A stretch of 64,000 bases of DNA from a phage: the sequence record OZ346212.1, one strand, 5' to 3'. Shown here one piece after another: positions 6,517-26,274 of this stretch. Made by a program: the position numbers and the translations under genes. Under the pieces are notes generated by a model, which made no database searches, was not told where the DNA came from, and was given only the letters and a program-made list of their open reading frames with translations. Each line of letters starts with the position of its first letter. Position 1 is the first letter of the stretch.

Positions 6517-8262
6517 ATGGCGCAAGACATGACAAGCTTCGAGCAGGCGGTAGATCAAGTAATTGTTGATTCTGAACGTTTGCACTTGATTGTCAACGGT
6601 AACGCTGTGGATGAAGTTGTCGTAGAGGATGGGACCACTATCCCTACGGTACGAAAAGCCATGCTTGACACCCTTTATTTTAAAACGCCACCAATCCCTT
6701 GGGCGTATGGTGCATCCACAACAGTTTTTAACCAGTTGTATGAGTTTAAAGGGGATACAGGCACTCAGTGGTGGTACGCCCCAGCAGCATCAAAATCTAA
6801 CCCGGTTAGAATGCCAGCAGATCCTTCACAATCTCCAAACTGGAGATTATACACCGACTCTGCAGTAATGGCAAAATACTACGCAAAACTTAACAGCCCA
6901 AGGTTCGAAGGTGACCCGCGAGTACCTACACCTCCAATGGACGATAAGTCAGAGTCCATAGCAAACACAGAGTTTGTTGTTGACTATGTTGATAGCATAT
7001 TTAAAGCCATGGAGGGGATGAAAGTTACTGTAGGATCTTTGGTGGTAAAAGGTCTTACAGAACTCGCTAACACTATAGTTGGTGGCACCCTTACCTTACA
7101 TGGACCTGTTAATGGGGCAGATTCTACTGCACGCTTTAGGAATCTAATCCTCACGGCAAATACTTCTACACTTACTTTTGCGTGGAGCGATCCTAAGCAT
7201 GCAGACTGGAGAAGTACAGAGCTGCAACCTCATGAAGTGTCCACCCACAGGGTTATAGCTGACACTATAACTTCTGGGAAACCAGTGGCTAATAATAACG
7301 ATGTGCATTTTGATGGTCTGGGTAATAACTTTTTTGACTACGTGTACATTCGTGGTAATGCCATGAAGGCAGCAACCGAACCGACATTGCAGGTAGATGG
7401 GACCACCAGGGTTAAGAACCTTGAGGTGACAGGTACCGTTACAGGGATAACATACTCTGTCGATGGCACCATGATCTACCCTAGCTATATTGAAAGCACT
7501 GGTGATGCATTGATAAATGGCGATTTGGAGGTTGGCGGGTCTGTAGTTATTCGAGGTACGGCCTCTATCCAAAACATAGCTCTGAATACCTTAAGAGTCA
7601 ATGAGCGTGCAACTTTTGAAGGAGAAGGGCTTACAGCCAACAAAGGTGTAATTACCGAGCTGACAACAACCACTTTAACTGCAACAGCTGCAAACTCTGA
7701 AAACTGCAACGTTACCCGCAACTTGCAGGTAAATGGAGATGTCAGTTTAAACGCAGCAGGGCCTGGCACCACCTCTGTTCACAACCTTGAAATATCCGGC
7801 ACGGTGACTGGGTGGTTGCCTGACTTCTCTAATGTCACCTTTGTCTGTAATGGCATTAACTCCAGTGGCAAGATAACCACCTCTCAAGAAATTGAGGCGG
7901 GTAAAACCATTACTGCCCCTACTTTCCACGCAGGAAAGGTAGATTTTGATTTAGAGGAGGTTGACGCGTCCAGTGGGACATGGACACCTAACGGGCAGGC
8001 CAGTATGTATGTTGTTCACGCGAAAGGGGATTTTACAATAGGACAGTGGCCTGGGACATCAGCGGAAGATAAACCTTATCCATTCACTGCGGTTATCTAT
8101 GTAATTCAGGATGCTGTAGGTCACAACGTGACTTTGCACGATAAGTATGCTATCCTGTCGGCAACACCTGTTATTAACAACAAGGCTAACAGTGTTACCT
8201 TGCTGCAATTAACGTATTGTGGTGTTGGTGATATCGTAGACGTAGTAATTGCACAACGTTAA
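6517..8262 (+). CDS. putative tail fiber protein (581 aa)
   Basis: SD AAGGAGA upstream; large ORF in structural operon, Thr/Gly/Asn/Val-rich composition typical of fiber shafts. Confidence 0.7.
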   Translation: MAQDMTSFEQAVDQVIVDSERLHLIVNGNAVDEVVVEDGTTIPTVRKAMLDTLYFKTPPIPWAYGASTTVFNQLYEFKGDTGTQWWYAPAASKSNPVRMPADPSQSPNWRLYTDSAVMAKYYAKLNSPRFEGDPRVPTPPMDDKSESIANTEFVVDYVDSIFKAMEGMKVTVGSLVVKGLTELANTIVGGTLTLHGPVNGADSTARFRNLILTANTSTLTFAWSDPKHADWRSTELQPHEVSTHRVIADTITSGKPVANNNDVHFDGLGNNFFDYVYIRGNAMKAATEPTLQVDGTTRVKNLEVTGTVTGITYSVDGTMIYPSYIESTGDALINGDLEVGGSVVIRGTASIQNIALNTLRVNERATFEGEGLTANKGVITELTTTTLTATAANSENCNVTRNLQVNGDVSLNAAGPGTTSVHNLEISGTVTGWLPDFSNVTFVCNGINSSGKITTSQEIEAGKTITAPTFHAGKVDFDLEEVDASSGTWTPNGQASMYVVHAKGDFTIGQWPGTSAEDKPYPFTAVIYVIQDAVGHNVTLHDKYAILSATPVINNKANSVTLLQLTYCGVGDIVDVVIAQR

Positions 8263-17451: not shown

Positions 17452-17688
17452 TTAATCTTCGTAAATCAGGATTTCTGCTTTAGGTTTTCGTGCTTTCATG
17501 TCCAGCTCTATCCAGTGCACCATAGCTGTTTCAAGAAAAACAGCCTGGATGCATCCGTCCTCAGCAGCGTGTCCTAGCAGCATAACAAGATCTTCTCCTT
17601 CGTCATCTGCACCACGAACATACAGAATCTCCCCGGGTTCAAAATCTTTAACAACCTGATTGTTGGATAATTTACGAATTTTCGCCAT
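17452..17688 (-). CDS. small protein, member 4 of tandem paralog array (78 aa)
   Basis: Shares the PGE..V....DDEG...V..L...WIELDMK pattern with the three upstream 87-aa genes. Confidence 0.6.
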   Translation of the reverse strand: MAKIRKLSNNQVVKDFEPGEILYVRGADDEGEDLVMLLGHAAEDGCIQAVFLETAMVHWIELDMKARKPKAEILIYED

Positions 17689-17689
17689 A

Positions 17690-17953
17690 TTAGAAACCCT
17701 CTAAAAAGCTCTTGTAGAAAATAATTTCAGTATCTACACCAGTCACGATCTTATCGTTCCTGATTTCATCTGTAAGGTAGGTGTCAAAACGCAGAACCTG
17801 TGTGGTGTTGTCACACATCCACTCAGCTGTGACCATTGCGAAAATCTTAGCATCTTCATTATCTGGTGTGAATGTTACCACCTCACCGCACTTAAACTTT
17901 TCGATAGGCTGAGTGTTAGCTTTCGGTTCTGCGATAGTGATTTTTGTGGTCAT
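17690..17953 (-). CDS. small protein, member 3 of tandem paralog array (87 aa)
   Basis: SD GGAGGAG; motif F.CGEVV...IVTGVDTEIIFY parallels the neighbours. Confidence 0.65.
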   Translation of the reverse strand: MTTKITIAEPKANTQPIEKFKCGEVVTFTPDNEDAKIFAMVTAEWMCDNTTQVLRFDTYLTDEIRNDKIVTGVDTEIIFYKSFLEGF

Positions 17954-18216
17954 TATTCTCCTCCTTCTTTTGAATAGCTTGTCTCTCCAAGGATGGTAAT
18001 TTTGGTGTCAAGCTCTGTAACTTTCATGTTTGGCGGCAGATCGTACAACTCATTATTTTCTAAATCGAACCCCCACACACAATGTTCTCCTGTTTTGACA
18101 ATCATAACTATGTTTTGAATGCCGTCTCCGTCGCAACTTACCACAGTCCCACACGGAAAGCTGTCTGCACGCTTTTTGTTCTTCACCTTAGAATTGAATA
18201 CAATGCTGGTAGCCAT
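17953..18216 (-). CDS. small protein, member 2 of tandem paralog array (87 aa)
   Basis: SD GGAGGA; CGTVVSCDGDG...VTELDTKITILGE aligns with 18216..18479 product. Confidence 0.65.
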   Translation of the reverse strand: MATSIVFNSKVKNKKRADSFPCGTVVSCDGDGIQNIVMIVKTGEHCVWGFDLENNELYDLPPNMKVTELDTKITILGETSYSKEGGE

Positions 18217-18479
18217 TATTGTTCCTCCACCATAACTTCGCCAATAATTTCTATGCAGGCATCCATTTCTGTAACAACCAAACTGTGAGGTAGTTCTACA
18301 AACACCTTTCTGAACAGGTCAAATACCCCAACATATATGTTTGCAGGATGTGATTTTACAACAAGTGCTGTATTCACATCCCCAAGTTCATCAACAAACA
18401 TCACCACAGTGCCTGGAGCTACTGAGGACAGATACTTCTTAGTTTTACGGTTTGATGCAAATTTTAACTCTGTTGCCAT
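18216..18479 (-). CDS. small protein, member 1 of tandem paralog array (87 aa)
   Basis: SD GAGGAGG; PGTVVMFVDELGD...VTEMDACIEIIGE. Confidence 0.65.
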   Translation of the reverse strand: MATELKFASNRKTKKYLSSVAPGTVVMFVDELGDVNTALVVKSHPANIYVGVFDLFRKVFVELPHSLVVTEMDACIEIIGEVMVEEQ

Positions 18480-18494
18480 AAATAACCTCCTCTC

Positions 18495-19955
18495 TTACTT
18501 AGCGTACTCGATTAATTCCACAGTTTTACCAAAGCTCGGGATATAATTTTTATTATACCCCTCAGTGAGGACCCATAGAGTATCGTACTTTTTCCACTTG
18601 TTGTCAACAACCTTTTGTTCAAAGTTATGCTCAAAGTATAGGTCGGTCAGGACGATGACATCTTTTGCATTAGGTATGTTGGCATCCAGATACTCGAACA
18701 CGCAAGCAGCTGTTGTGCCCCATGTTGAGTGGACCTCATAGTTGATCATCTCGTCTATGTTGCCGCGAGTGTATACTTTAACCTCTCCAACCTCAGTTGA
18801 CCAACAGAACATTGTAACCTTAAACTCTTTATACAGATTGCACAATCCGGTGATTTCATTGAACATTTTCTTTAAAGTTCTTTGAGAGATCGAGCCAGAA
18901 ACGTCTAAAGCCACCACAATATCTATAGTGTTTTCCGGATTACGACCAGGAACAATAACGTGCTGGTTCTTGTTTATAGCCCCAACTTTTCGCATTGTGC
19001 TGGTCAAAGACCCAGATCGGCGACCAGGTTTTCTGTAGGTCAGTTCGGCCTTTCTTTTAGACAACATACGTTGCTTAATGATGTCTATATAGTTGATTAC
19101 AGGCTTACCTCTGTTCTTGACAAACTCACGCACCGCCTCAGGGCAACGGCCTCCGGACGCTTGCATTGCTGCCTCCAGCATATCACCAGAGTCCTGCATG
19201 GCCTGATCTTTATCAGATTGGCTGATTACAGGTTGTGGCTGATCATACCCCATAGCCTTTCCAAGATTATCACTGGTGCCACCGTTCCCACTCATGTGAT
19301 CATCGGTTTGTCGCTTATCACTTTGAGAGTTCTCACCTTTACCGTTCTTACTTTTACCGTTATTCTGATCTCTTTGCTTATCAAGAACTGCATAAACGTT
19401 CTCAGCAATCCATCCATGAAACTTCATGTCGCAGTAGCAGCTGGCTAAGAAGCCAAAAGGCTTACCTTTCATGAACGTAGTGCTTTTCCCCTTCGGGAAG
19501 AAAACACAAGGGGGTTTGCTAAAGTCAACCACAAGGCCTGTGTTGATAACGTGATCACAAGCAATATTGAACAGTTCCGGCTCAAAGCTTTTACCACGGA
19601 CTAGGTGATCACAGATAATATGCCCCACCTCATGTGACAGAAGGAAGGCCACCTCTTTCACAGATTTTGGGGAATAGAAAACTTCAGCCATCTCAAACTG
19701 CTCGTCAGTTAGAGAAGCCTTAAGAATAGCCTTGCGCTCATCAGCCAATCCCATAATGAACTCAGGACTGTAATAGATGCGTTTATGGTCGGTTGCCATG
19801 GTGGAGCACCATGTGTGGTTTTCTACGAACTGCAACCCTGACAGTAGTGTGCCATAAAACGGCAGCTTTTCAAGGAGATACATACGTGCAGCCTGCAACA
19901 TTCTCAGGGCATCATCTTTCTGCGAGGCAATGATTTCTGAACTTCTGCTATCCAT
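18495..19955 (-). CDS. metallopeptidase-like / von Willebrand factor A domain protein (about 486 aa)
   Basis: HExxH zinc-metallopeptidase-like motif (HEVGHIICDH) in N-terminal half; MIDAS-type VWA motif (VVALDVSGS) in C-terminal half; start set to ATG 19955 (SD GGAG) because ATG 19976 lies in the loop of a hairpin. Confidence 0.7.
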   Translation of the reverse strand: MDSRSSEIIASQKDDALRMLQAARMYLLEKLPFYGTLLSGLQFVENHTWCSTMATDHKRIYYSPEFIMGLADERKAILKASLTDEQFEMAEVFYSPKSVKEVAFLLSHEVGHIICDHLVRGKSFEPELFNIACDHVINTGLVVDFSKPPCVFFPKGKSTTFMKGKPFGFLASCYCDMKFHGWIAENVYAVLDKQRDQNNGKSKNGKGENSQSDKRQTDDHMSGNGGTSDNLGKAMGYDQPQPVISQSDKDQAMQDSGDMLEAAMQASGGRCPEAVREFVKNRGKPVINYIDIIKQRMLSKRKAELTYRKPGRRSGSLTSTMRKVGAINKNQHVIVPGRNPENTIDIVVALDVSGSISQRTLKKMFNEITGLCNLYKEFKVTMFCWSTEVGEVKVYTRGNIDEMINYEVHSTWGTTAACVFEYLDANIPNAKDVIVLTDLYFEHNFEQKVVDNKWKKYDTLWVLTEGYNKNYIPSFGKTVELIEYAK

Positions 19956-19968
19956 TAAAACTCCAGAA

Positions 19969-19983
19969 GGGGCCATCGGCCCC
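19969..19983 (-). terminator. hairpin between - strand genes, possible terminator/attenuator
   Basis: GGGGCC-atc-GGCCCC, followed on the - strand by U-rich ttctggagtttta. Confidence 0.35.
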
Positions 19984-19988
19984 TGTCA

Positions 19989-21029
19989 TTATTTAACGTG
20001 TTTGAAAATACCTGCCAACTCGGTCATTGTCATGCGGGTGGTCTTCATAAGATCTGTCATAGCTTTCTCCATAATTGGAGATACTACCATAAAGTTTCCT
20101 TTAGTGAAACCTTTATTCCAGTCGGTCACCAACAGGGGTTTAAGTCCAGCTCCAAGACGTTCACCAGTTAAAGCACAGCATTTGCGAATATACGAACTCT
20201 TAAATTGGCTGAACGACAGATCAACTTTCATACCTACATCGTAGAACGTTTGACAATAGAAAGTGTAAGCTTTGGCAATCTCAACATCATCAGGTAGTGC
20301 AGGAACCTCTTCTGTAAGCTCCTCTTCGACCTCCTGAGTCTCTTTTTCCTCTTCATGCACCTGTTGCGTCATTTCTTCAATCTCTTCTGTGATAGGCTCG
20401 TTTACAATGTCGGAAATGTGCTTCTTGGGTGCACGATAAGTAACTTTAGACATCGGTAGCATATCTTCCTCCTCTTCTTCGTCAAAGAGTGCTAGTTTAT
20501 CCTCTTCCGTTCCATATTGCAAGATGAAATCTTCAAAAGTATAATCACCTTTCAATTTCTCCATACGCTCTTCGCTCAGGTGGAGCATCATCTGCTGGAC
20601 AATTTTTCGATCAGTTTCGTCTTTAATCAAGACTGCAGTCTTTTTATCTACCAGACAGTCCTTTAGAGAGTTGCATCTCAATCCCACCACACAACAGTTA
20701 TCAACCGCATAAGGACCTTCATCATCTATCCGCTCCAGAGATGGGTAGAAAGGATTCCCCAGCCCGTTTTCATCTGTGTGCATGTCAAAAGGTATAAGGG
20801 TATAGTCGCATACTCCATCTCCTAAAAGTTTTTTACCAAATAGGAGGTATTCTTCCCATGACAGGTCGAACTCTATATCTCGTTTCCGTGCGTTATTCTG
20901 TTTGCGTCTATATTTTTTGAGCAAGCGCTCTAACTCTTCTGGTGTATAATATTTTTCAAGATTCATGAGTCGTCTCTCGTGCTCTGTAAGTGAAGAAATC
21001 GTATCAATTGTCTCAACAGATGTCAACAT
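19989..21029 (-). CDS. hypothetical protein with two related Cys-containing domains and an acidic linker (346 aa)
   Basis: ATG 21029 preferred over TTG 21032; internal duplication (...PSLERIDDEGPYAVDNCCVVGLRCN... and ...CCALTGERL...NFMVVSP...); internal ATG sits in a 29-bp repeat shared with 22292..22320. Confidence 0.6.
   Translation of the reverse strand: MLTSVETIDTISSLTEHERRLMNLEKYYTPEELERLLKKYRRKQNNARKRDIEFDLSWEEYLLFGKKLLGDGVCDYTLIPFDMHTDENGLGNPFYPSLERIDDEGPYAVDNCCVVGLRCNSLKDCLVDKKTAVLIKDETDRKIVQQMMLHLSEERMEKLKGDYTFEDFILQYGTEEDKLALFDEEEEEDMLPMSKVTYRAPKKHISDIVNEPITEEIEEMTQQVHEEEKETQEVEEELTEEVPALPDDVEIAKAYTFYCQTFYDVGMKVDLSFSQFKSSYIRKCCALTGERLGAGLKPLLVTDWNKGFTKGNFMVVSPIMEKAMTDLMKTTRMTMTELAGIFKHVK
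20431..20459. repeat. 29-bp sequence identical (inverted) to 22292..22320, includes an ATG
   Basis: Reverse complement of 20431..20459 = TACCGATGTCTAAAGTTACTTATCGTGCA = 22292..22320. Confidence 0.8.
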
Positions 21030-21039
21030 CAAAAACGTG

Positions 21040-21068
21040 TTGACTTTACTCTAACTCCACAATATAGT
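21040..21068 (+). promoter_or_regulatory. sigma70-like promoter (TTGACT-N17-TATAGT)
   Basis: Hexamers at 21040 and 21063 in the divergent intergenic region upstream of 21109. Confidence 0.55.
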
Positions 21069-21108
21069 GCACCCATTCGAAAGAAAACTAACATAGGAGC
21101 ACTTACTT

Positions 21109-22008
21109 ATGGCAAATCTTAACAGTTTTAGTACGCGGTGGAAACAGGACATAACAACCAATCTTTCAGCTGGGGACATCCTTTCTGCAATTTACGAGGC
21201 TTTAGATGATAAAGCTACTTCAAAAGCGGTTTGTACCAACCCATTAATTCCTATAGTGATGAAGGTTATTGAGCGTAGATTGGTATCTGGGTCTGATAAG
21301 TGGACATATTTAGATAATGAAGGACACACCTATTCCAATGGGTATGTCGATATAAAAGTAGAATACGCGGTATCATACCGCCGGAGCGGTTCTGTAACTT
21401 TCAACTTCTCTGGAGGTTTTCGATCTCTGGCTACCTCACCTTTTGTTTCCTCAGAGGAGAAGTATGAGCTGCCATTTCTTTGGATGATGGCTAACGCGAC
21501 AGGAAAAACCCCCGTTAGCATCCGAGTAAAATACAACTACAACGGATCTAGTAAGATCTATGCCGAAAGTGTCTCAGCAAGTTTTTATTTTGTGATGGGG
21601 GATGGAATCCTCAAACATATAAAGATGTGCGATATGCATGATGTTATAAATGAAGTGACTGATAAGAATGTTCTAGTGAAAGACCTCAACAATTTTTATA
21701 CACCTGGAGACTATTACGTCAGCCGTCCACTGTGCATCTTTAATGCCGCACACCCTCTAGGTGAGTATTTGATCGCCAATAGCGATATTGCCAATAACCG
21801 CTTCGAGGTAGCAAGAGTTCAGAATGAGGTATTGACATCTTGCAAGAGCGGTGATAAGTTTACCGAAGAAGAGATGGGTGTTTTAGAAATGATGGGATAT
21901 AAGTGTAGCCTTTGGGTAGATGAGGTGTTTAATGATTGCATCTATGGACAGGATATTTACCCATTAAAGAAGTATACTGATACAAGTTTAATTTATGCGA
22001 GGGTTTGA
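21109..22008 (+). CDS. hypothetical protein (299 aa)
   Basis: ORF with SD AGGAG 9 nt upstream. Confidence 0.65.
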   Translation: MANLNSFSTRWKQDITTNLSAGDILSAIYEALDDKATSKAVCTNPLIPIVMKVIERRLVSGSDKWTYLDNEGHTYSNGYVDIKVEYAVSYRRSGSVTFNFSGGFRSLATSPFVSSEEKYELPFLWMMANATGKTPVSIRVKYNYNGSSKIYAESVSASFYFVMGDGILKHIKMCDMHDVINEVTDKNVLVKDLNNFYTPGDYYVSRPLCIFNAAHPLGEYLIANSDIANNRFEVARVQNEVLTSCKSGDKFTEEEMGVLEMMGYKCSLWVDEVFNDCIYGQDIYPLKKYTDTSLIYARV

Positions 22009-22283
22009 CTATGATGAAGGCATGTGGTAATGTATATTACGTCGGTGAACATGTTCAGGCAGACAGTGTGTGGAAATCTATTAAGTCCACCACTGACGAT
22101 GCCCTTCTGAGTGGACTATGTTTCCCCAATCCGGGAGACATCCTCCCTCATCCTGGAGATTTTGTTGTCAACAAGATGGACGGTTATACCGTGTGCCTGA
22201 TGGTTGAAAAAATCTTTTTAGACACTAGACACAATCACCGTCTTGTGTTAAAATTTCAAGAATGTAAAATGACAATTGCCTAA
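22005..22283 (+). CDS. hypothetical protein (92 aa)
   Basis: ORF overlapping upstream stop (ATGA), SD GAGGG. Confidence 0.6.
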   Translation: MTMMKACGNVYYVGEHVQADSVWKSIKSTTDDALLSGLCFPNPGDILPHPGDFVVNKMDGYTVCLMVEKIFLDTRHNHRLVLKFQECKMTIA

Positions 22284-22291
22284 GGAGACCT

Positions 22292-22320
22292 TACCGATGT
22301 CTAAAGTTACTTATCGTGCA
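22292..22320. repeat. 29-bp repeat copy spanning the start codon of gene 22297..22653
   Basis: Identical to the reverse complement of 20431..20459. Confidence 0.8.
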
Positions 22321-22653
22321 GCTATTTACTGCAATGAACACCCAATCAATAATGATGGTCACTGCCTTTTTAAAGAAAATCAATTGGGCTGTATTGTCCT
22401 CCCTGATGAAGGGGAAGGTTATCTGATTGCATTGACAGGGTTTGAACCTGAGGCTCTGGAAGCCAATCTGGACTACCTGGTAGAAGAGGGTGCTGCAGAC
22501 CTGGTTGCCAATGGCCTCTCCATAAGCCTTGACGAAGTAGAGCGCTTCATGGGCAATTACCGTGTAGTGCGTGAGTTTACTATCGAGGTGGAAACTCCCG
22601 AGTGGAGTAGCCATGAAACTAATGCCGAAGAAAAAGAAGAGGAGGTAGAATAA
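22297..22653 (+). CDS. hypothetical acidic protein (118 aa)
   Basis: ATG 22297 with SD AAGGAG at 22282 preferred over track start 22276; N-terminus MSKVTYRA. Confidence 0.6.
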   Translation: MSKVTYRAAIYCNEHPINNDGHCLFKENQLGCIVLPDEGEGYLIALTGFEPEALEANLDYLVEEGAADLVANGLSISLDEVERFMGNYRVVREFTIEVETPEWSSHETNAEEKEEEVE

Positions 22654-22910
22654 TGAAAGTGCAGATCTTGACTAATGCCGAGAAGATGTTTATTGAAGAT
22701 ACACCTTTTGAAGCTGGTGAGCTACAGTTCGTTTATTTTGTTGACTTAGATAAGGTGTTTCCTGCACTGAATCTAGGTTTGGATGAAGTTCCTCATAAGG
22801 TTTTGTGCCAAGTTGTTCGTGCCTTAGCGGCAGAGGGGGAGTTCCACACCCTTCAAGATGTCCAGACCTACGGGTATCTTGAACTACAACGAGAAGAAGA
22901 GGTGGACTGA
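22653..22910 (+). CDS. hypothetical protein (85 aa)
   Basis: SD GAGGAGG upstream, start overlaps previous stop. Confidence 0.6.
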   Translation: MKVQILTNAEKMFIEDTPFEAGELQFVYFVDLDKVFPALNLGLDEVPHKVLCQVVRALAAEGEFHTLQDVQTYGYLELQREEEVD

Positions 22911-22912
22911 TA

Positions 22913-23293
22913 ATGGCTCAGTGGAAGACGACAGTTGACCTTCATGATCAGTGGTTAGGACGCATCACTGAAGACGGGAAGCTAGTGGAGTGGGACAATA
23001 AGCATGTTAGCGAGTTGGCAAGTATTGTGGCTGGCAAGTTACGCTCCAAGTTCCCTGAACAACTGGATCCTGATAGTTCAAAGTTCGATCCTGAGTTGGA
23101 GGATGTTGTATACTACTTCGATACCGTGGATGACTACGATGCGTGGTTTGCAGCACGGGAGCTTTACCCACAAGGCTCTGCTATGCGCCAGATGGAAGAA
23201 GATTATCCTCCGTGTGAGCAATTCAATAGTGCAATGACTTGCCTCTATGATTGGGCAGATAAGAACCTTGTCTGGATTCGGACTGCATTTTAG
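22913..23293 (+). CDS. hypothetical protein (126 aa)
   Basis: ORF with SD GAGGTGG upstream. Confidence 0.6.
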   Translation: MAQWKTTVDLHDQWLGRITEDGKLVEWDNKHVSELASIVAGKLRSKFPEQLDPDSSKFDPELEDVVYYFDTVDDYDAWFAARELYPQGSAMRQMEEDYPPCEQFNSAMTCLYDWADKNLVWIRTAF

Positions 23294-23337
23294 TGGGCAG
23301 GAATGGCGGCAAGGATGCCGCTTAAGGAGTAGTAGAG

Positions 23338-23607
23338 ATGTTATACCAGCAATATGAACTTCGTGCAGAAAAAGAGTTAAATTTTGACAAAGATATTCAC
23401 AGATATTATTATGGGAAAGTTAGAGGGCAAGCAAGAAAGTGTACTCCAACACTCTTTTATGCCAGCAGACGACTAGCGCCAGAAGAGGCAACAGCAGAAA
23501 GGGTTGCGTACAACTGGAGAGTCACGTATGATATTGACAGATTCGATGTGATATCTGTTTTGGAAAACTTTGAAAACACTTACACACAAGTAGAGGACTT
23601 TTACTAA
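23338..23607 (+). CDS. hypothetical protein (89 aa)
   Basis: ORF with SD AAGGAG upstream. Confidence 0.6.
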   Translation: MLYQQYELRAEKELNFDKDIHRYYYGKVRGQARKCTPTLFYASRRLAPEEATAERVAYNWRVTYDIDRFDVISVLENFENTYTQVEDFY

Positions 23608-24791
23608 TGTCAAGAAACGTATTCGAAAGTGGTCAAATCACTGTCCGTGAGTTGCCAGCTATTATTCAGTTTGCCCAACGTCATAGCCGATCTGTCCTAA
23701 TTTTGGGACCAATGGGTGTGGGTAAAAGCCAGGTGATGAAGCAGATCGCTGATAATATGTTCGGTGAGCGAGATGACAACCTTGTTGACGTGCGACTGTC
23801 AGATAAAGATCCTGCCGACTTATCTGGGCTACCTATCCCTGTAGAAGCGGATGGAACTACACGTACAGTGTTTGCAATTCCAGAATTTTGGCCTGCGGAT
23901 CCTGACTGGAGCGGAATTATCTTTCTGGATGAGCTCACTCATGCAGATAACTACCTGCAAAAGGTTGCAATGCAAATTATGCTTGACCACAAGTGCGGCA
24001 CCTATGCATTCCCTAAGGGTTCTGTTTTTGTGGCTGCGGGTAACCGTTCTACAGATGGTGCGGTTCTTTCGGCGCTCGAAGCCCCTCTGGCTAACCGTTT
24101 TATCATTGTAGAGGTTACAAGCAATGCAGAGGTGTTTATTGAGGACTACGCATTCCTCAACGGGGTTCACTCCTCTGTAATTGGGTATCTGAAAAGAGTT
24201 CCATCAGCTATTGATAATTATGAGGCTATGGCTGAGATTAATTGTCCATCTTTTGCCACACCACGATCTTGGGTTGCTGCATCTGACATCTTGCACGATT
24301 TTGACAGCGGTATTATTTCTGACGCTATGGCCCGTGTTCTTCTGCAAGGTGCTATTGGTCACACTGCAGCGGTAGAGATCTGGACATACCACACCAAGAA
24401 ACGCAATTTACCGGAAATCGGTCGGATTATGGCAGGTGGCTGCAAAGAATACGTAGGCCCTAAGCAGCCAGACATTTTGTGGATTCTTGGATCTGAAGGT
24501 TGTATCGCTATTCGTAATATGATGGAAAATGCAAGTATCTCAGACGAAGATCTTGTCAGCTGTGTGGCAAACTTCCTCGATTTCCTTTGGGAAAACTTCA
24601 AGGACGAGAACCGAGATTTTGTATTCTCAGTCTTTATGGCGATGATGAAACCTAATGCCTTAGGAAATGCCTTGCTTATCGGTAAAGGGCGTGACAAGAT
24701 TGTTGCTCAGCTGATCAAAGCATACCCAAACCTGATGAAGATTGTAAAAGAGTTTGGTGAAGAGTTTAGCGCCATTTTGGCTAAAGCTTAA
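23607..24791 (+). CDS. MoxR-like AAA+ ATPase (394 aa)
   Basis: Walker A GPMGVGKS and Walker B IIFLDELTHA; size and layout typical of MoxR/AAA_5 ATPases. Confidence 0.75.
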   Translation: MSRNVFESGQITVRELPAIIQFAQRHSRSVLILGPMGVGKSQVMKQIADNMFGERDDNLVDVRLSDKDPADLSGLPIPVEADGTTRTVFAIPEFWPADPDWSGIIFLDELTHADNYLQKVAMQIMLDHKCGTYAFPKGSVFVAAGNRSTDGAVLSALEAPLANRFIIVEVTSNAEVFIEDYAFLNGVHSSVIGYLKRVPSAIDNYEAMAEINCPSFATPRSWVAASDILHDFDSGIISDAMARVLLQGAIGHTAAVEIWTYHTKKRNLPEIGRIMAGGCKEYVGPKQPDILWILGSEGCIAIRNMMENASISDEDLVSCVANFLDFLWENFKDENRDFVFSVFMAMMKPNALGNALLIGKGRDKIVAQLIKAYPNLMKIVKEFGEEFSAILAKA

Positions 24792-25732: not shown

Positions 25733-26274
25733 TTGTAAACAGTAATGAAACTAAAGCAGTACTAACCGGAAATATGGAGGTCACCAGGGGCTCAATTTCT
25801 CTGAACAAAGAGACTTTTGGGCTAATCATTAAAGGGATTTACGAAGATAAGGTGCTGGCAAGCTGCCGTGAACCAATCTTCAATGCTGTGGACTCCCATG
25901 TTGAGTCTGGACGGGGTGATGTACCGATCATCATTCACTCTCCTACAGACCTTGAACCATACTTCTTTGTGCAGGACGTTGGATTGGGCATGTCGGAAGA
26001 GATGGTCCGCAACACTTTCATGAACCTCGGGGAGTCAACCAAGCGCAACAGCAACGCTCTGGTAGGTAATAAAGGTGTAGGTTCAAAGGCCCCGTTCAGC
26101 ATGGTGGACACTTTCGATGTGATCAGTGTGCCATACCAACACAACAGTGCTAAGTGCCGTGCATGCCGCTACGAAATAGTAGCAGCACCGGAATCACGCA
26201 AAGATGGCGATCCGATTGAATACGTAGTTGACCGTGATGGTAACATCATCGACATTATCTACGAGGAGGCGTAA
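25729..26274 (+). CDS. small GHKL-fold (HATPase_c-like) ATP-binding protein (181 aa)
   Basis: Bergerat-fold motifs in canonical order: N-box EPIFNAVDSH, G1 VQDVGLGM, G2 GNKGVGSKA; SD AAGGAG. Confidence 0.55.
   Translation: MIVNSNETKAVLTGNMEVTRGSISLNKETFGLIIKGIYEDKVLASCREPIFNAVDSHVESGRGDVPIIIHSPTDLEPYFFVQDVGLGMSEEMVRNTFMNLGESTKRNSNALVGNKGVGSKAPFSMVDTFDVISVPYQHNSAKCRACRYEIVAAPESRKDGDPIEYVVDRDGNIIDIIYEEA

Follow-up and report, generated by a model that had tools for sequence, protein, structure and literature searches.

An rV5-like phage encodes a MoxR-class ATPase and an HExxH-VWA protein that are probably the separated halves of the N4 gp24/gp25 module

We have found that two genes on opposite strands of an rV5-like phage, one encoding a protein classed as a MoxR AAA+ ATPase and the other a protein with an HExxH metallopeptidase-like domain and a VWA domain, probably correspond to phage N4 gp24/gp25, a single conserved phage module whose halves have here come apart, and that this module would act as an ATP-driven, MIDAS-guided protease or remodeller. 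The window analysed here is a stretch of 64,000 nucleotides (record OZ346212.1), and across the region that we examined it is 100% identical to Escherichia phage naswa (Vequintavirus, rV5-like). Both reading frames (23607-24791 on the plus strand and 18495-19955 on the minus strand) are present as the initial annotation had placed them; it had put them about 3.6 kb apart on opposite strands, and the distance between their start codons is 3651 nt (Table 1). The module occurs in hundreds of phages, and N4-like phages, which have 14 core genes, owe two of these to it; no member of it has a known function.

Table 1. Features of the two genes and of the DNA that lies between and around them.
Feature	Coordinates	Strand	Details
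DUF2201-family protein, 486 aa	18495..19955	-	PHROG 1314; homologue of N4 gp25
MIDAS D438	18642-18644	-	completes motif
MIDAS T414	18714-18716	-	completes motif
MIDAS DxSxS (DVSGS), C-terminal VWA domain	18891-18905	-	D351, S353, S355
HExxHxxxxH (HEVGHIICDH), zincin-like N-terminal domain	19605-19634	-	H108, E109, H112, H117
GC-rich hairpin, 7 bp	19968..19984		AGGGGCC-GAT-GGCCCCT; follows the stop of the upstream gene and precedes the RBS/start of the VWA gene
Context gene, PHROG 3118 protein	19989..20966	-	first gene of minus arm; annotated 'anti-sigma factor'
Divergent intergenic region	20967..21108		separates minus arm (Srd/EndoVII-like gene, then VWA gene) from plus arm (six genes, then ATPase)
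Promoter-like site, minus arm	21026-20998	-	TTGACA-17-TACGAT, TG-extended; sigma-70 consensus match only
Promoter-like site, plus arm	21040-21068	+	TTGACT-17-TATAGT; sigma-70 consensus match only
Promoter-like match, strongest of region	23384..23412	+	TTGACA-17-TATTAT, 11/12; consensus match only
MoxR-class AAA+ ATPase (predicted), 394 aa	23607..24791	+	PHROG 1297; homologue of phage N4 gp24
ATPase Walker A, GVGKS	23715-23729	+	conserved motif
ATPase Walker B, DE	23928-23933	+	conserved motif
ATPase sensor-1 N146	24042-24044	+	conserved residue
ATPase Arg finger R164 (before strand 5)	24096-24098	+	conserved residue
ATPase sensor-2 R220	24264-24266	+	conserved residue

Results

Two proteins with intact functional motifs

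As judged from its family profile and a structure model, the ATPase is a MoxR-class AAA+ protein. The initial annotation had described its motifs as MoxR/AAA_5-like, and the MoxR part of that description is borne out by the Walker motifs, sensors, Arg finger, profile and fold, whereas the AAA_5 part is not borne out on the window protein itself, which scores 16.7 bits against Pfam AAA_5, below the cutoff of 22, has no match to AAA_3 and scores under every Pfam AAA cutoff. Profiles and a structure model were required to assign the protein to MoxR; class assignment from single-sequence searches (Pfam, NCBIfam, PDB) gave P-loop-level matches only, to ClpB and p97, and was set aside. Homologues at 31-36% identity carry precomputed AAA_3, AAA_5 and bpMoxR matches, and an Arcobacter homologue (L167) is above the Pfam cutoffs for both AAA_3 (36.7 against 27) and AAA_5 (28.7 against 22). 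When the family profile was compared with solved structures the best match was Midasin (E = 2e-9), and the top Foldseek matches of the AF2 model (pLDDT 87) were NorQ (9qh7) and CbbQ2 (6l1q), with E = 2e-8 to 3e-8 and a target TM-score of 0.65. The query TM-score against NorQ/CbbQ is only 0.43-0.46, because the phage protein continues at its C-terminus into a further helical region, some 110 residues long (approximately residues 280-394) and specific to the family. The model also places a beta-hairpin (75-81/84-90) at the position of the helix-2 insert and a short pair of strands ahead of 138-145, that is, pre-sensor-1. GVGKS, DE, N146, R164 and R220 are invariant in the family alignment and kept in 167-169 of 169 homologues; with all its catalytic motifs intact, the ATPase is predicted to be catalytically competent.

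The partner protein consists of a zincin-like HExxH…H domain followed by a VWA domain with a complete MIDAS, as had been read from its motifs at the outset, and both parts score above their Pfam cutoffs (DUF2201_N, PF13203, 99.1 bits against 23.2; DUF2201 VWA-like, 43.0 bits against 26.4). In the structure model the four residues of the HExxHxxxxH motif lie on one helix (99-118), and the C-terminal domain shows the Rossmann-like fold of VWA domains. The MIDAS is kept in 114/114 sequences, and its D, S and S in all 174 family representatives. Inspected by eye and at the level of secondary structure, the model of the small VWA domain (approximately residues 340-486) has the usual strands only and shows no clear NorD-type finger that could insert into the pore. 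Comparison of the N-terminal domain with solved peptidases gave no significant match, the matches found being Pfam DUF2201_N and a weak one to Peptidase_M48 (E = 0.0085). The linker at approximately residues 200-228 is acidic and Gly-rich and is modelled with low confidence, and the protein carries a conserved basic segment, YRKPGRRS. We prefer 19955 as the start of the gene, with GGAG 7 nt upstream and the same start annotated in Murica and LL12; a longer alternative from 19976 would start within the hairpin listed in Table 1. Domain classification thus leaves the MoxR and VWA/MIDAS assignments standing.

The two genes are neighbours in related genomes

MoxR ATPases and their VWA partners had been described at the start as usually adjacent, and this is correct for the present family. 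Loci were collected with the ATPase alignment from IMG/VR, and also from bacterial genomes, and the counts given here are of informative loci. The DUF2201 gene directly follows the ATPase gene on the same strand at 68 of 71 IMG/VR loci (median gap 73 nt) and at 45 of 72 bacterial-genome loci, mostly from Campylobacterota, and the same adjacent order is found in loci L003-L007. The synteny survey thereby confirms the pairing through gene order in other phages and in bacteria. The identity of the two proteins to those of the window also declines in parallel, being 53/47% (ATPase/VWA) in Klebsiella-type relatives, 35/33% in Certrevirus and approximately 27/21-24% in N4-like phages. Synteny elsewhere and parallel divergence, both read from sequence, strongly support the view that the ATPase and the DUF2201 protein would be partners despite their separation in the window. 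By tblastn, 813 public phage genomes carry the ATPase and 621 carry the VWA partner. Clustered at 50% identity, the VWA family comprises more than 20,000 clusters (E ≤ 1e-10).

The opposite strands and the 3.65 kb of separation could also mean that in rV5-like phages the genes have been functionally uncoupled, the split being a decoupling that leaves each protein to act alone or with other partners. A lone ATPase does have a parallel among cells: 26 bacterial-genome loci, many of them from Sulfurovum, contain the ATPase and no DUF2201 match in the DNA fetched, and at 16 of these there are several kb of room on both sides and still no DUF2201, so that the ATPase can apparently exist unlinked to DUF2201. 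We nevertheless regard uncoupling in rV5-like phages as very unlikely. Both genes, with all their functional motifs, are retained in more than 115 rV5-like genomes and in other split lineages, the two proteins diverge in step, both genes lie a few genes away from the same divergent promoter region, and among phage loci with enough DNA none is clearly without a partner (one of the 71 could not be resolved).

The pair and its separation in the light of phage N4

By homology of both proteins, the pair of the window is identified as the N4 gp24/gp25 module. A tblastn search with the VWA protein found N4 gp25 (E = 2e-10), hhalign of the VWA protein against a protein of the N4-like phage Philippe gave a probability of 99.95%, and the Philippe ATPase is annotated as a homologue of N4 gp24. 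In N4-like phages (Schitoviridae) gp24, an AAA ATPase, and gp25, a vWFA protein, are the two core genes referred to above and are listed as of unknown function; in N4 they belong to the middle-phase transcripts. The likeness extends over the full length of both proteins, with an ATPase and an HExxH-VWA protein in each case, and to the location of the genes in an early/middle gene region. The systems differ in that the N4-like genes are adjacent and co-directional, that identity to the rV5-like proteins is just 21-27% or so, and that in the rV5-like VWA protein the linker is longer and some 30 additional residues are inserted ahead of the active-site helix.

We show that the separation of the two genes on either side of a divergent promoter region is a derived state, a rearrangement that belongs to the Vequintavirus/Seunavirus branch: the ATPase and VWA genes are adjacent in Certrevirus PBES02, and they are split onto opposite strands in Seunavirus 4MG, in a 53%-identical relative (L009) and in the rV5-like phages.

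Organization of the locus

The intergenic region between the two arms contains back-to-back sigma-70-like sites, and the -35 boxes of the two are inverted copies of each other (GTCAAC…GTTGAC). The initial annotation had proposed a divergent promoter region here; the matches stand between the arms as expected of one, but promoter-like sites are not enriched over shuffled sequence, so those of the divergent region are bare consensus matches. The sign of the GC skew flips in the same region. The strongest promoter-like match lies within the 89-aa ORF that immediately precedes the ATPase gene, for which it may serve as an additional promoter. The hairpin ahead of the VWA gene, which is annotated as a terminator in Murica, could be a terminator, an attenuator or an RNA-stability element. 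No tandem repeats of relevance were found in the region.

The gene upstream of the VWA gene had been read as extending to 21029 and as encoding a duplicated-domain protein, a reading that we abandon. Comparison of the two halves gave a BLASTP E of 3.5 and a Smith-Waterman score under the shuffle mean (z = -0.87), the C-terminal half matches none of the endonuclease VII/Srd-like PHROGs of the N-terminal half, and a motif picked out by eye in both halves (DLSxxx[YF]…C..TG…P.L) has no statistical support. The gene probably starts at 20966 rather than at 21029, and the N-terminal half of its product resembles endonuclease VII and T4 Srd-like proteins. In the lineages with the split (rV5-like phages, 4MG) it accompanies the VWA gene, and we treat it as a context gene of the pair.

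The ATPase and VWA genes sit in an early/replication region, with rIIA, a helicase and a methyltransferase as neighbours, and not within a structural module. This context bears on the idea that the pair is a virion-assembly chaperone, for which the archaeal virus ATV supplies a precedent as a virus with its own MoxR-VWA pair, p618 (MoxR) and p892 (VWA), implicated in tail development (cited in PMC9964418 and PMC7159879). Given these neighbours, the middle-phase transcription of N4 gp24/gp25 and the wide differences in virion type among the carriers, which include podo-, myo- and jumbo phages, we consider a role in virion assembly highly improbable.

The peptidase motif is kept in phages and mostly lost in bacterial genomes

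All 71 phage-type copies that were scored have an intact HExxH, as against just 4 of 43 bacterial-genome copies; in the other 39, mostly from Campylobacterota, the motif has degenerated to N-[ASGC]-x-x-H. Of 174 representatives of the DUF2201 family, 163 have the catalytic Glu. This pattern of conservation suggests that the zincin domain may be active in phages, where it would either cut the captured target or process the adaptor itself. We put forward, tentatively and as a conjecture that may well prove wrong, that the pair represents a new kind of ATP-dependent protease that would operate without threading of the substrate, the MIDAS selecting the target and the AAA+ ring driving its remodelling. 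N4-like podoviruses, rV5-like myoviruses, jumbo phages and cyanophages might on this account cleave either a conserved host protein, in takeover or counter-defence, or a phage protein that they share, and the Campylobacterota operons would have kept the machine and inactivated the peptidase.

Another possibility, which we think unlikely, is that the pair is a non-proteolytic maturation chaperone of the NorQD, CbbQO, CoxDE or CobST type, which remodels a phage or host metalloenzyme or inserts its metal, with the His-rich HExxH…H site binding or delivering the metal instead of cutting peptide bonds. Every characterised MoxR-VWA pair is a remodelling or metal-insertion chaperone, and NorQ and CbbQ are the nearest structural matches of the phage ATPase. 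H112 and H117 are retained even in the bacterial-genome homologues that lack H108 and E109, so what is conserved may be the ability to bind metal, and in N4-like phages and freshwater phage contigs the neighbours of the pair are genes of nucleotide metabolism, such as those for dCMP deaminase and thymidylate synthase. The strict retention of the catalytic Glu and of the first His in every phage copy would, however, be unexpected if the site had only to bind metal. CobS/CobT-type Pfam matches are absent, and we know of no single metalloenzyme that is common to the rV5-like, N4-like, jumbo and cyanophage carriers.

Discussion

We propose that the two proteins of the window act together as an ATP-driven, MIDAS-guided machine, in a manner modelled on NorQ/NorD, CbbQ/CbbO and RavA/ViaA, for which mechanistic precedent has been described (PMC9976466, PMC13036017). 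By analogy with these pairs, the ATPase would form a hexameric ring onto which one VWA protein docks, the metal of the MIDAS would capture a specific target protein by one of its acidic side chains, and ATP hydrolysis would remodel that target through the VWA adaptor. The protein acted on may be one of the host or of the phage, and the pair may do its work before replication, in the early/middle phase; early/middle expression in rV5-like phages is suggested by the gene neighbourhood together with the N4 precedent. The target was described as unknown from the outset, which agrees with the literature, where we found no characterised member of the DUF2201 family (COG3864, PF13203) and no function for the family or for MoxR in rV5.

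Public records already label the pair as a MoxR ATPase and a metallopeptidase/VWA protein, and the novelty of the identification is therefore modest. We note that an annotation error is spreading in PHROGs-derived and RefSeq records, in which the VWA/peptidase protein is called "HNH endonuclease" or "anti-sigma factor".

Two identities were considered for the pair and rejected. A known anti-phage defence system was not recognised by PADLOC, which gave P-loop-level matches only for the ATPase (E > 0.002) and none for the VWA protein. A CobS/CobT cobaltochelatase-like identity found no Pfam or NCBIfam matches, CobT-like phage VWA proteins being distant fold matches only.

The closest cellular relatives that we found belong to a Campylobacterota operon in which a gene for a protein of about 450 aa is followed by MoxR and then DUF2201. 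The ATPase is 32-42% identical and its gene is directly followed by the DUF2201 gene, as in phages; the operon differs in its cellular context (Ddl, MurF) and in its mostly degenerate peptidase motif. The upstream gene is conserved there, but neither the window nor the phage loci contain a homologue of it, and so it gives no clue to the phage target. The p618/p892 pair of Acidianus two-tailed virus, likened here by description, is similarly a virus-encoded MoxR-VWA pair; it differs in coming from an archaeal virus, in its role in extracellular tail development and in that a peptidase domain is not reported.

A MoxR-vWA core is also shared with the ternary conflict systems (VMAP, iSTAND, FtsH) described by Kaur et al. 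2020 (PMC7159879), in which a peptidase, rarely a metallopeptidase, is sometimes fused to the vWA component (PMC7159879), and one homologue of the phage ATPase has a precomputed bpMoxR match. Unlike those systems, the window has no VMAP, iSTAND or FtsH third component, the phage peptidase domain is N-terminal to the VWA domain, and the module is carried by virulent phages.

NorQ/NorD and CbbQ/CbbO (CGN subfamily), in which a MoxR AAA+ protein likewise works with a VWA adaptor, differ from the phage pair in that NorD and CbbO have no peptidase domain, in that their clients are nitric oxide reductase and Rubisco, and in that NorQ and CbbQ lack the additional C-terminal helical region of the phage ATPase. 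With these as the closest mechanistic models, with the split rV5 genes placed in the N4 gp24/gp25 family, and with HExxH intact in phages and lost from bacterial-genome copies, the question of what the module does becomes directly testable in tractable E. coli phages, both rV5-like and N4.

A MoxR-class ATPase and a peptidase-like VWA partner

We accept the ATPase, which the initial annotation had described as MoxR/AAA_5-like, as belonging to the MoxR class. The protein carries Walker A (GVGKS) and Walker B (DE) motifs, sensor 1 (N146), R164 just before strand 5 and sensor 2 (R220), and its catalytic residues are kept in 167-169 of 169 homologues. Taken alone it scores below every Pfam AAA cutoff (AAA_5, 16.7 against a cutoff of 22), and a single-sequence PDB search gave matches at the P-loop only. 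The description is nevertheless borne out by the motifs, by AAA_3, AAA_5 and bpMoxR matches on homologues with 31-36% identity over ~85% of the length, by a 34-sequence profile whose best match among solved structures is Midasin, and by an AF2 model (pLDDT 87, pTM 0.75) that most resembles NorQ, including NorQ-NorD complexes, and the MoxR Rubisco activase CbbQ2 (E ~2e-8, target TM 0.65). At the expected helix-2 insert position the model has a beta-hairpin, and a second, short one precedes sensor 1. The protein matches PHROG 1297 (E = 2e-110), and its C-terminal helical region of ~110 residues is family-specific. The structural comparison favours the NorQ/CbbQ (CGN) group but the Pfam matches of the homologues favour AAA_3, and we leave the subfamily open. 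We note that the ORF overlapping the ATPase start (ATGA) is labelled 'ATPase' by PHROG 13164 but contains no detectable ATPase domain; within it lies the best sigma-70-like promoter match of the region.

Coordinates of the features in the window
Feature	Position	Strand	Detail
ATPase	23607-24791	+	394 aa
Partner ORF	18495-19955	-	486 aa
Partner start ATG	19955	-	GGAG 7 nt upstream; same start in Murica and LL12
Srd/endonuclease VII-like gene, probable extent	19989-20966	-	
Putative divergent control region	20967-21108		
Four consecutive small ORFs	17452-18479	-	78, 87, 87, 87 aa
ORF overlapping ATPase start	23338-23607		89 aa
Best sigma-70-like match	23384-23412	+	TTGACA-17-TATTAT, 11/12
Region of the deletion relative to phage naswa	25729-26274		junction ~26124-26132

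The partner likewise combines, as first proposed, an HExxH domain with a MIDAS-containing VWA domain: DUF2201_N ("putative metallopeptidase") and DUF2201 ("VWA-like") both score above the Pfam cutoff, and both the HEVGHIICDH motif and a full MIDAS (DVSGS, T414, D438) are intact. The best reading of its start is the ATG listed in the table; an alternative, longer ORF from 19976 would start inside a GC-rich hairpin. The MIDAS residues are invariant in 114/114 sequences, and D, S and S in all 174 sequences of a second sample. In the AF2 model (pLDDT 81, with a disordered acidic/Gly-rich linker at ~residues 200-228), HExxH and H117 share one long helix that follows a small three-stranded sheet, a predicted arrangement compatible with a zincin fold. 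Comparison of this domain with solved peptidases gave no significant similarity, and the case for a peptidase therefore relies on membership of the Pfam family and on the conserved motif. DUF2201 is a very large family, with 27,532 clusters (50% identity) at E <= 1e-3, or 20,332 if the limit is E <= 1e-10, and our literature search found no paper addressing its function.

The split arrangement is derived

The start codons of the two genes lie 3651 nt apart on opposite strands, in agreement with the ~3.6 kb first noted. The divergent promoter region proposed between them is only plausible: back-to-back sigma-70-like matches and a change of sign in GC skew are found there, but promoter-like sites are no more frequent than in shuffles. 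The reading of 19989-21029 as a duplicated-domain protein lacks support, since BLASTP of its halves gives E = 3.5, their local alignment scores below the shuffle mean (z = -0.87) and endonuclease VII/Srd-like PHROGs match the N-terminal half only. The probable start of this gene, 20966, lies downstream of the minus-strand promoter match.

That MoxR and VWA genes are usually adjacent holds for this family. Among 80 IMG/VR loci fetched through the ATPase, 68 have a DUF2201 gene directly after it on the same strand, at a median distance of 73 nt measured from stop-to-stop ORF to stop-to-stop ORF. In nine others the contig breaks off immediately behind the ATPase, and a further one is unresolved. 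The genes are split in only two loci, namely an rV5-like contig and a relative, 147 kb long, with 53% identity. Independent look-ups of two distant homologues, one on a 578-kb phage-like contig, gave the same adjacent arrangement. Within the Vequintavirinae the genes are adjacent in Certrevirus PBES02, whereas in Seunavirus 4MG and Vequintavirus the VWA gene follows the Srd-like gene on the opposite arm of the divergent region. Adjacency in most loci and in Certrevirus thus indicates that the split is derived. Functional decoupling of the two proteins in the split lineages is one of the weaker rival explanations; after the split both genes are still only a few genes from the same control region, and across lineages their identities drop in parallel. 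The genetic linkage is tight and ancient.

Two further features of the locus deserve mention. Of the four small ORFs immediately downstream of the VWA gene, three are of equal length with similar N-termini (e.g. MATSIVFNSKVKNKK…, MATELKFASNRKTKK…), which suggests a tandem paralogue array. Beyond the ATPase, ~2.65 kb of phage naswa is absent, and the junction is spanned in none of the 120 related public records. Here residue 134 of rIIA, normally a 660-aa ORF, is followed in frame by the final 47 rIIB codons, and the resulting 181-aa fusion ORF abuts the helicase gene. The breakpoints fall in a 16-nt near-repeat (GATGTGATCAGTGTGC / GATGTGGTTAGTGTGC) encoding DV[IV]SV in both paralogues, and the loss looks like a homology-mediated deletion.

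Phage carriers and cellular relatives

A tblastn search yields 813 phage records for the ATPase and 621 for the partner, with the same carrier groups: rV5-like phages and relatives, N4-like podoviruses of many hosts, jumbo phages (PA5oct, phAPEC6-like, Atu_ph07, CBB, GAP32) and cyanophage S-TIM5, to which a BFVD search adds Bacillus phage PBS1. N4 gp25 is a direct tblastn match of the partner. Full-length hhalign of the partner against its homologue in the N4-like phage Philippe gives a probability of 99.95% (E = 5e-38), and the gene upstream of that homologue is annotated as an N4 gp24 homologue. In N4-like phages gp24 ("unknown") and gp25 ("vWFA domain") are among 14 core genes and are middle-phase transcripts (PMC4193335; PMC2784036).

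The closest bacterial ATPase homologues (32-42% identity) are from Campylobacterota (Sulfurovum, Sulfuricurvum, Sulfurimonas, Sulfurospirillum, Arcobacter); one lies on a complete Sulfurovum chromosome, and the Arcobacter locus has a cellular context (Ddl, MurF). DUF2201 directly follows the ATPase in 45/72 informative bacterial-genome loci. The fetched DNA of 26 bacterial loci, many from Sulfurovum, contains no DUF2201 match, and in 16 of these it extends several kb on both sides. Immediately upstream of the pair in Campylobacterota chromosomes is a conserved gene of ~450 aa without a Pfam hit (6593-7942 in the Arcobacter locus L167, and in ~48 other genome loci among L090-L168), which is kept even where the fetched DNA shows no DUF2201 gene and has no counterpart in the window or the phage loci. 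Its product may serve the cellular system as a third component or be its client.

In 39/43 bacterial-genome copies, most of them from Campylobacterota, other residues stand in place of the first His and the catalytic Glu of HExxH (N-[ASGC]-x-x-H), whereas 71/71 phage-type copies keep HExxH. The four bacterial-genome exceptions come from MAG contigs; their DUF2201 proteins have phage-type scores, and we suspect that these contigs belong to phages.

A possible mechanism

Judged by their motifs, the ATPase is a competent MoxR-class motor and the partner a VWA adaptor with a MIDAS, joined in one protein to a conserved HExxH…H domain. By analogy with NorQD and related pairs, the ATPase would form a hexamer on which one adaptor docks, an acidic residue of the target would complete the MIDAS metal, and ATP hydrolysis, acting through the adaptor, would remodel the target rather than thread it through the pore. 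Because the catalytic Glu and His are strictly retained in phages, the zincin domain may there have peptidase activity, directed at the captured protein or at the adaptor itself. The main rival is a non-proteolytic chaperone or metal-insertion role. We also note that on the 578-kb contig (L006, 1592-8591) the pair lies among proteostasis genes (HSP20, ClpS, ClpP), which may hint at a role in protein quality control or degradation. N4 timing and the neighbouring rIIA, helicase, methyltransferase and SleB-like hydrolase genes suggest that the pair would act early or in the middle phase. Given such diverse carriers, the target seems more likely to be a conserved host protein or generic phage process than a lineage-specific structural client; a role in virion assembly, like that of the pair of Acidianus two-tailed virus (ATV), is a weaker rival.

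Relation to public annotation and known systems

Escherichia phage naswa matches window 18495-24791 at 100% identity, and 122 phage records, nearly all of them from rV5-like Vequintavirus, reach 90% or more. Several of these (LL12, Murica, FFH2, A51.2, rV5) already carry the labels "MoxR ATPase" and "putative metallopeptidase" or "VWA-like domain containing protein", so the observation is not new at the level of annotation. Sixteen records (MG0656xx) that match this E. coli rV5-like region bear the name 'Campylobacter phage', with Campylobacter jejuni as host; two of them, C12 (99.7% identity) and C2 (98.4%), are unannotated. The stated host looks doubtful. The partner is called 'putative anti-sigma factor' in naswa and its homologue in Philippe 'metallo-phosphohydrolase', and its family, PHROG 1314, is labelled 'HNH endonuclease', a label found on rV5-like and N4-like RefSeq records. 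Neither an HNH nor an anti-sigma domain was found in the protein, and the PHROG 1314 label is thus a propagating mis-annotation.

The gp24/gp25 module of N4 is recognised as core, and the MoxR-VWA pair is an established type, in some cases with a fused peptidase. What we add is the explicit tie of the split rV5 genes to the N4 module, the synteny counts for the split being derived, the contrast in the peptidase site between phage and related bacterial-genome copies, and the predicted structural placement beside NorQ and CbbQ. The pair is an uncharacterised member of that type, a tractable subject for experiment rather than a surprise.
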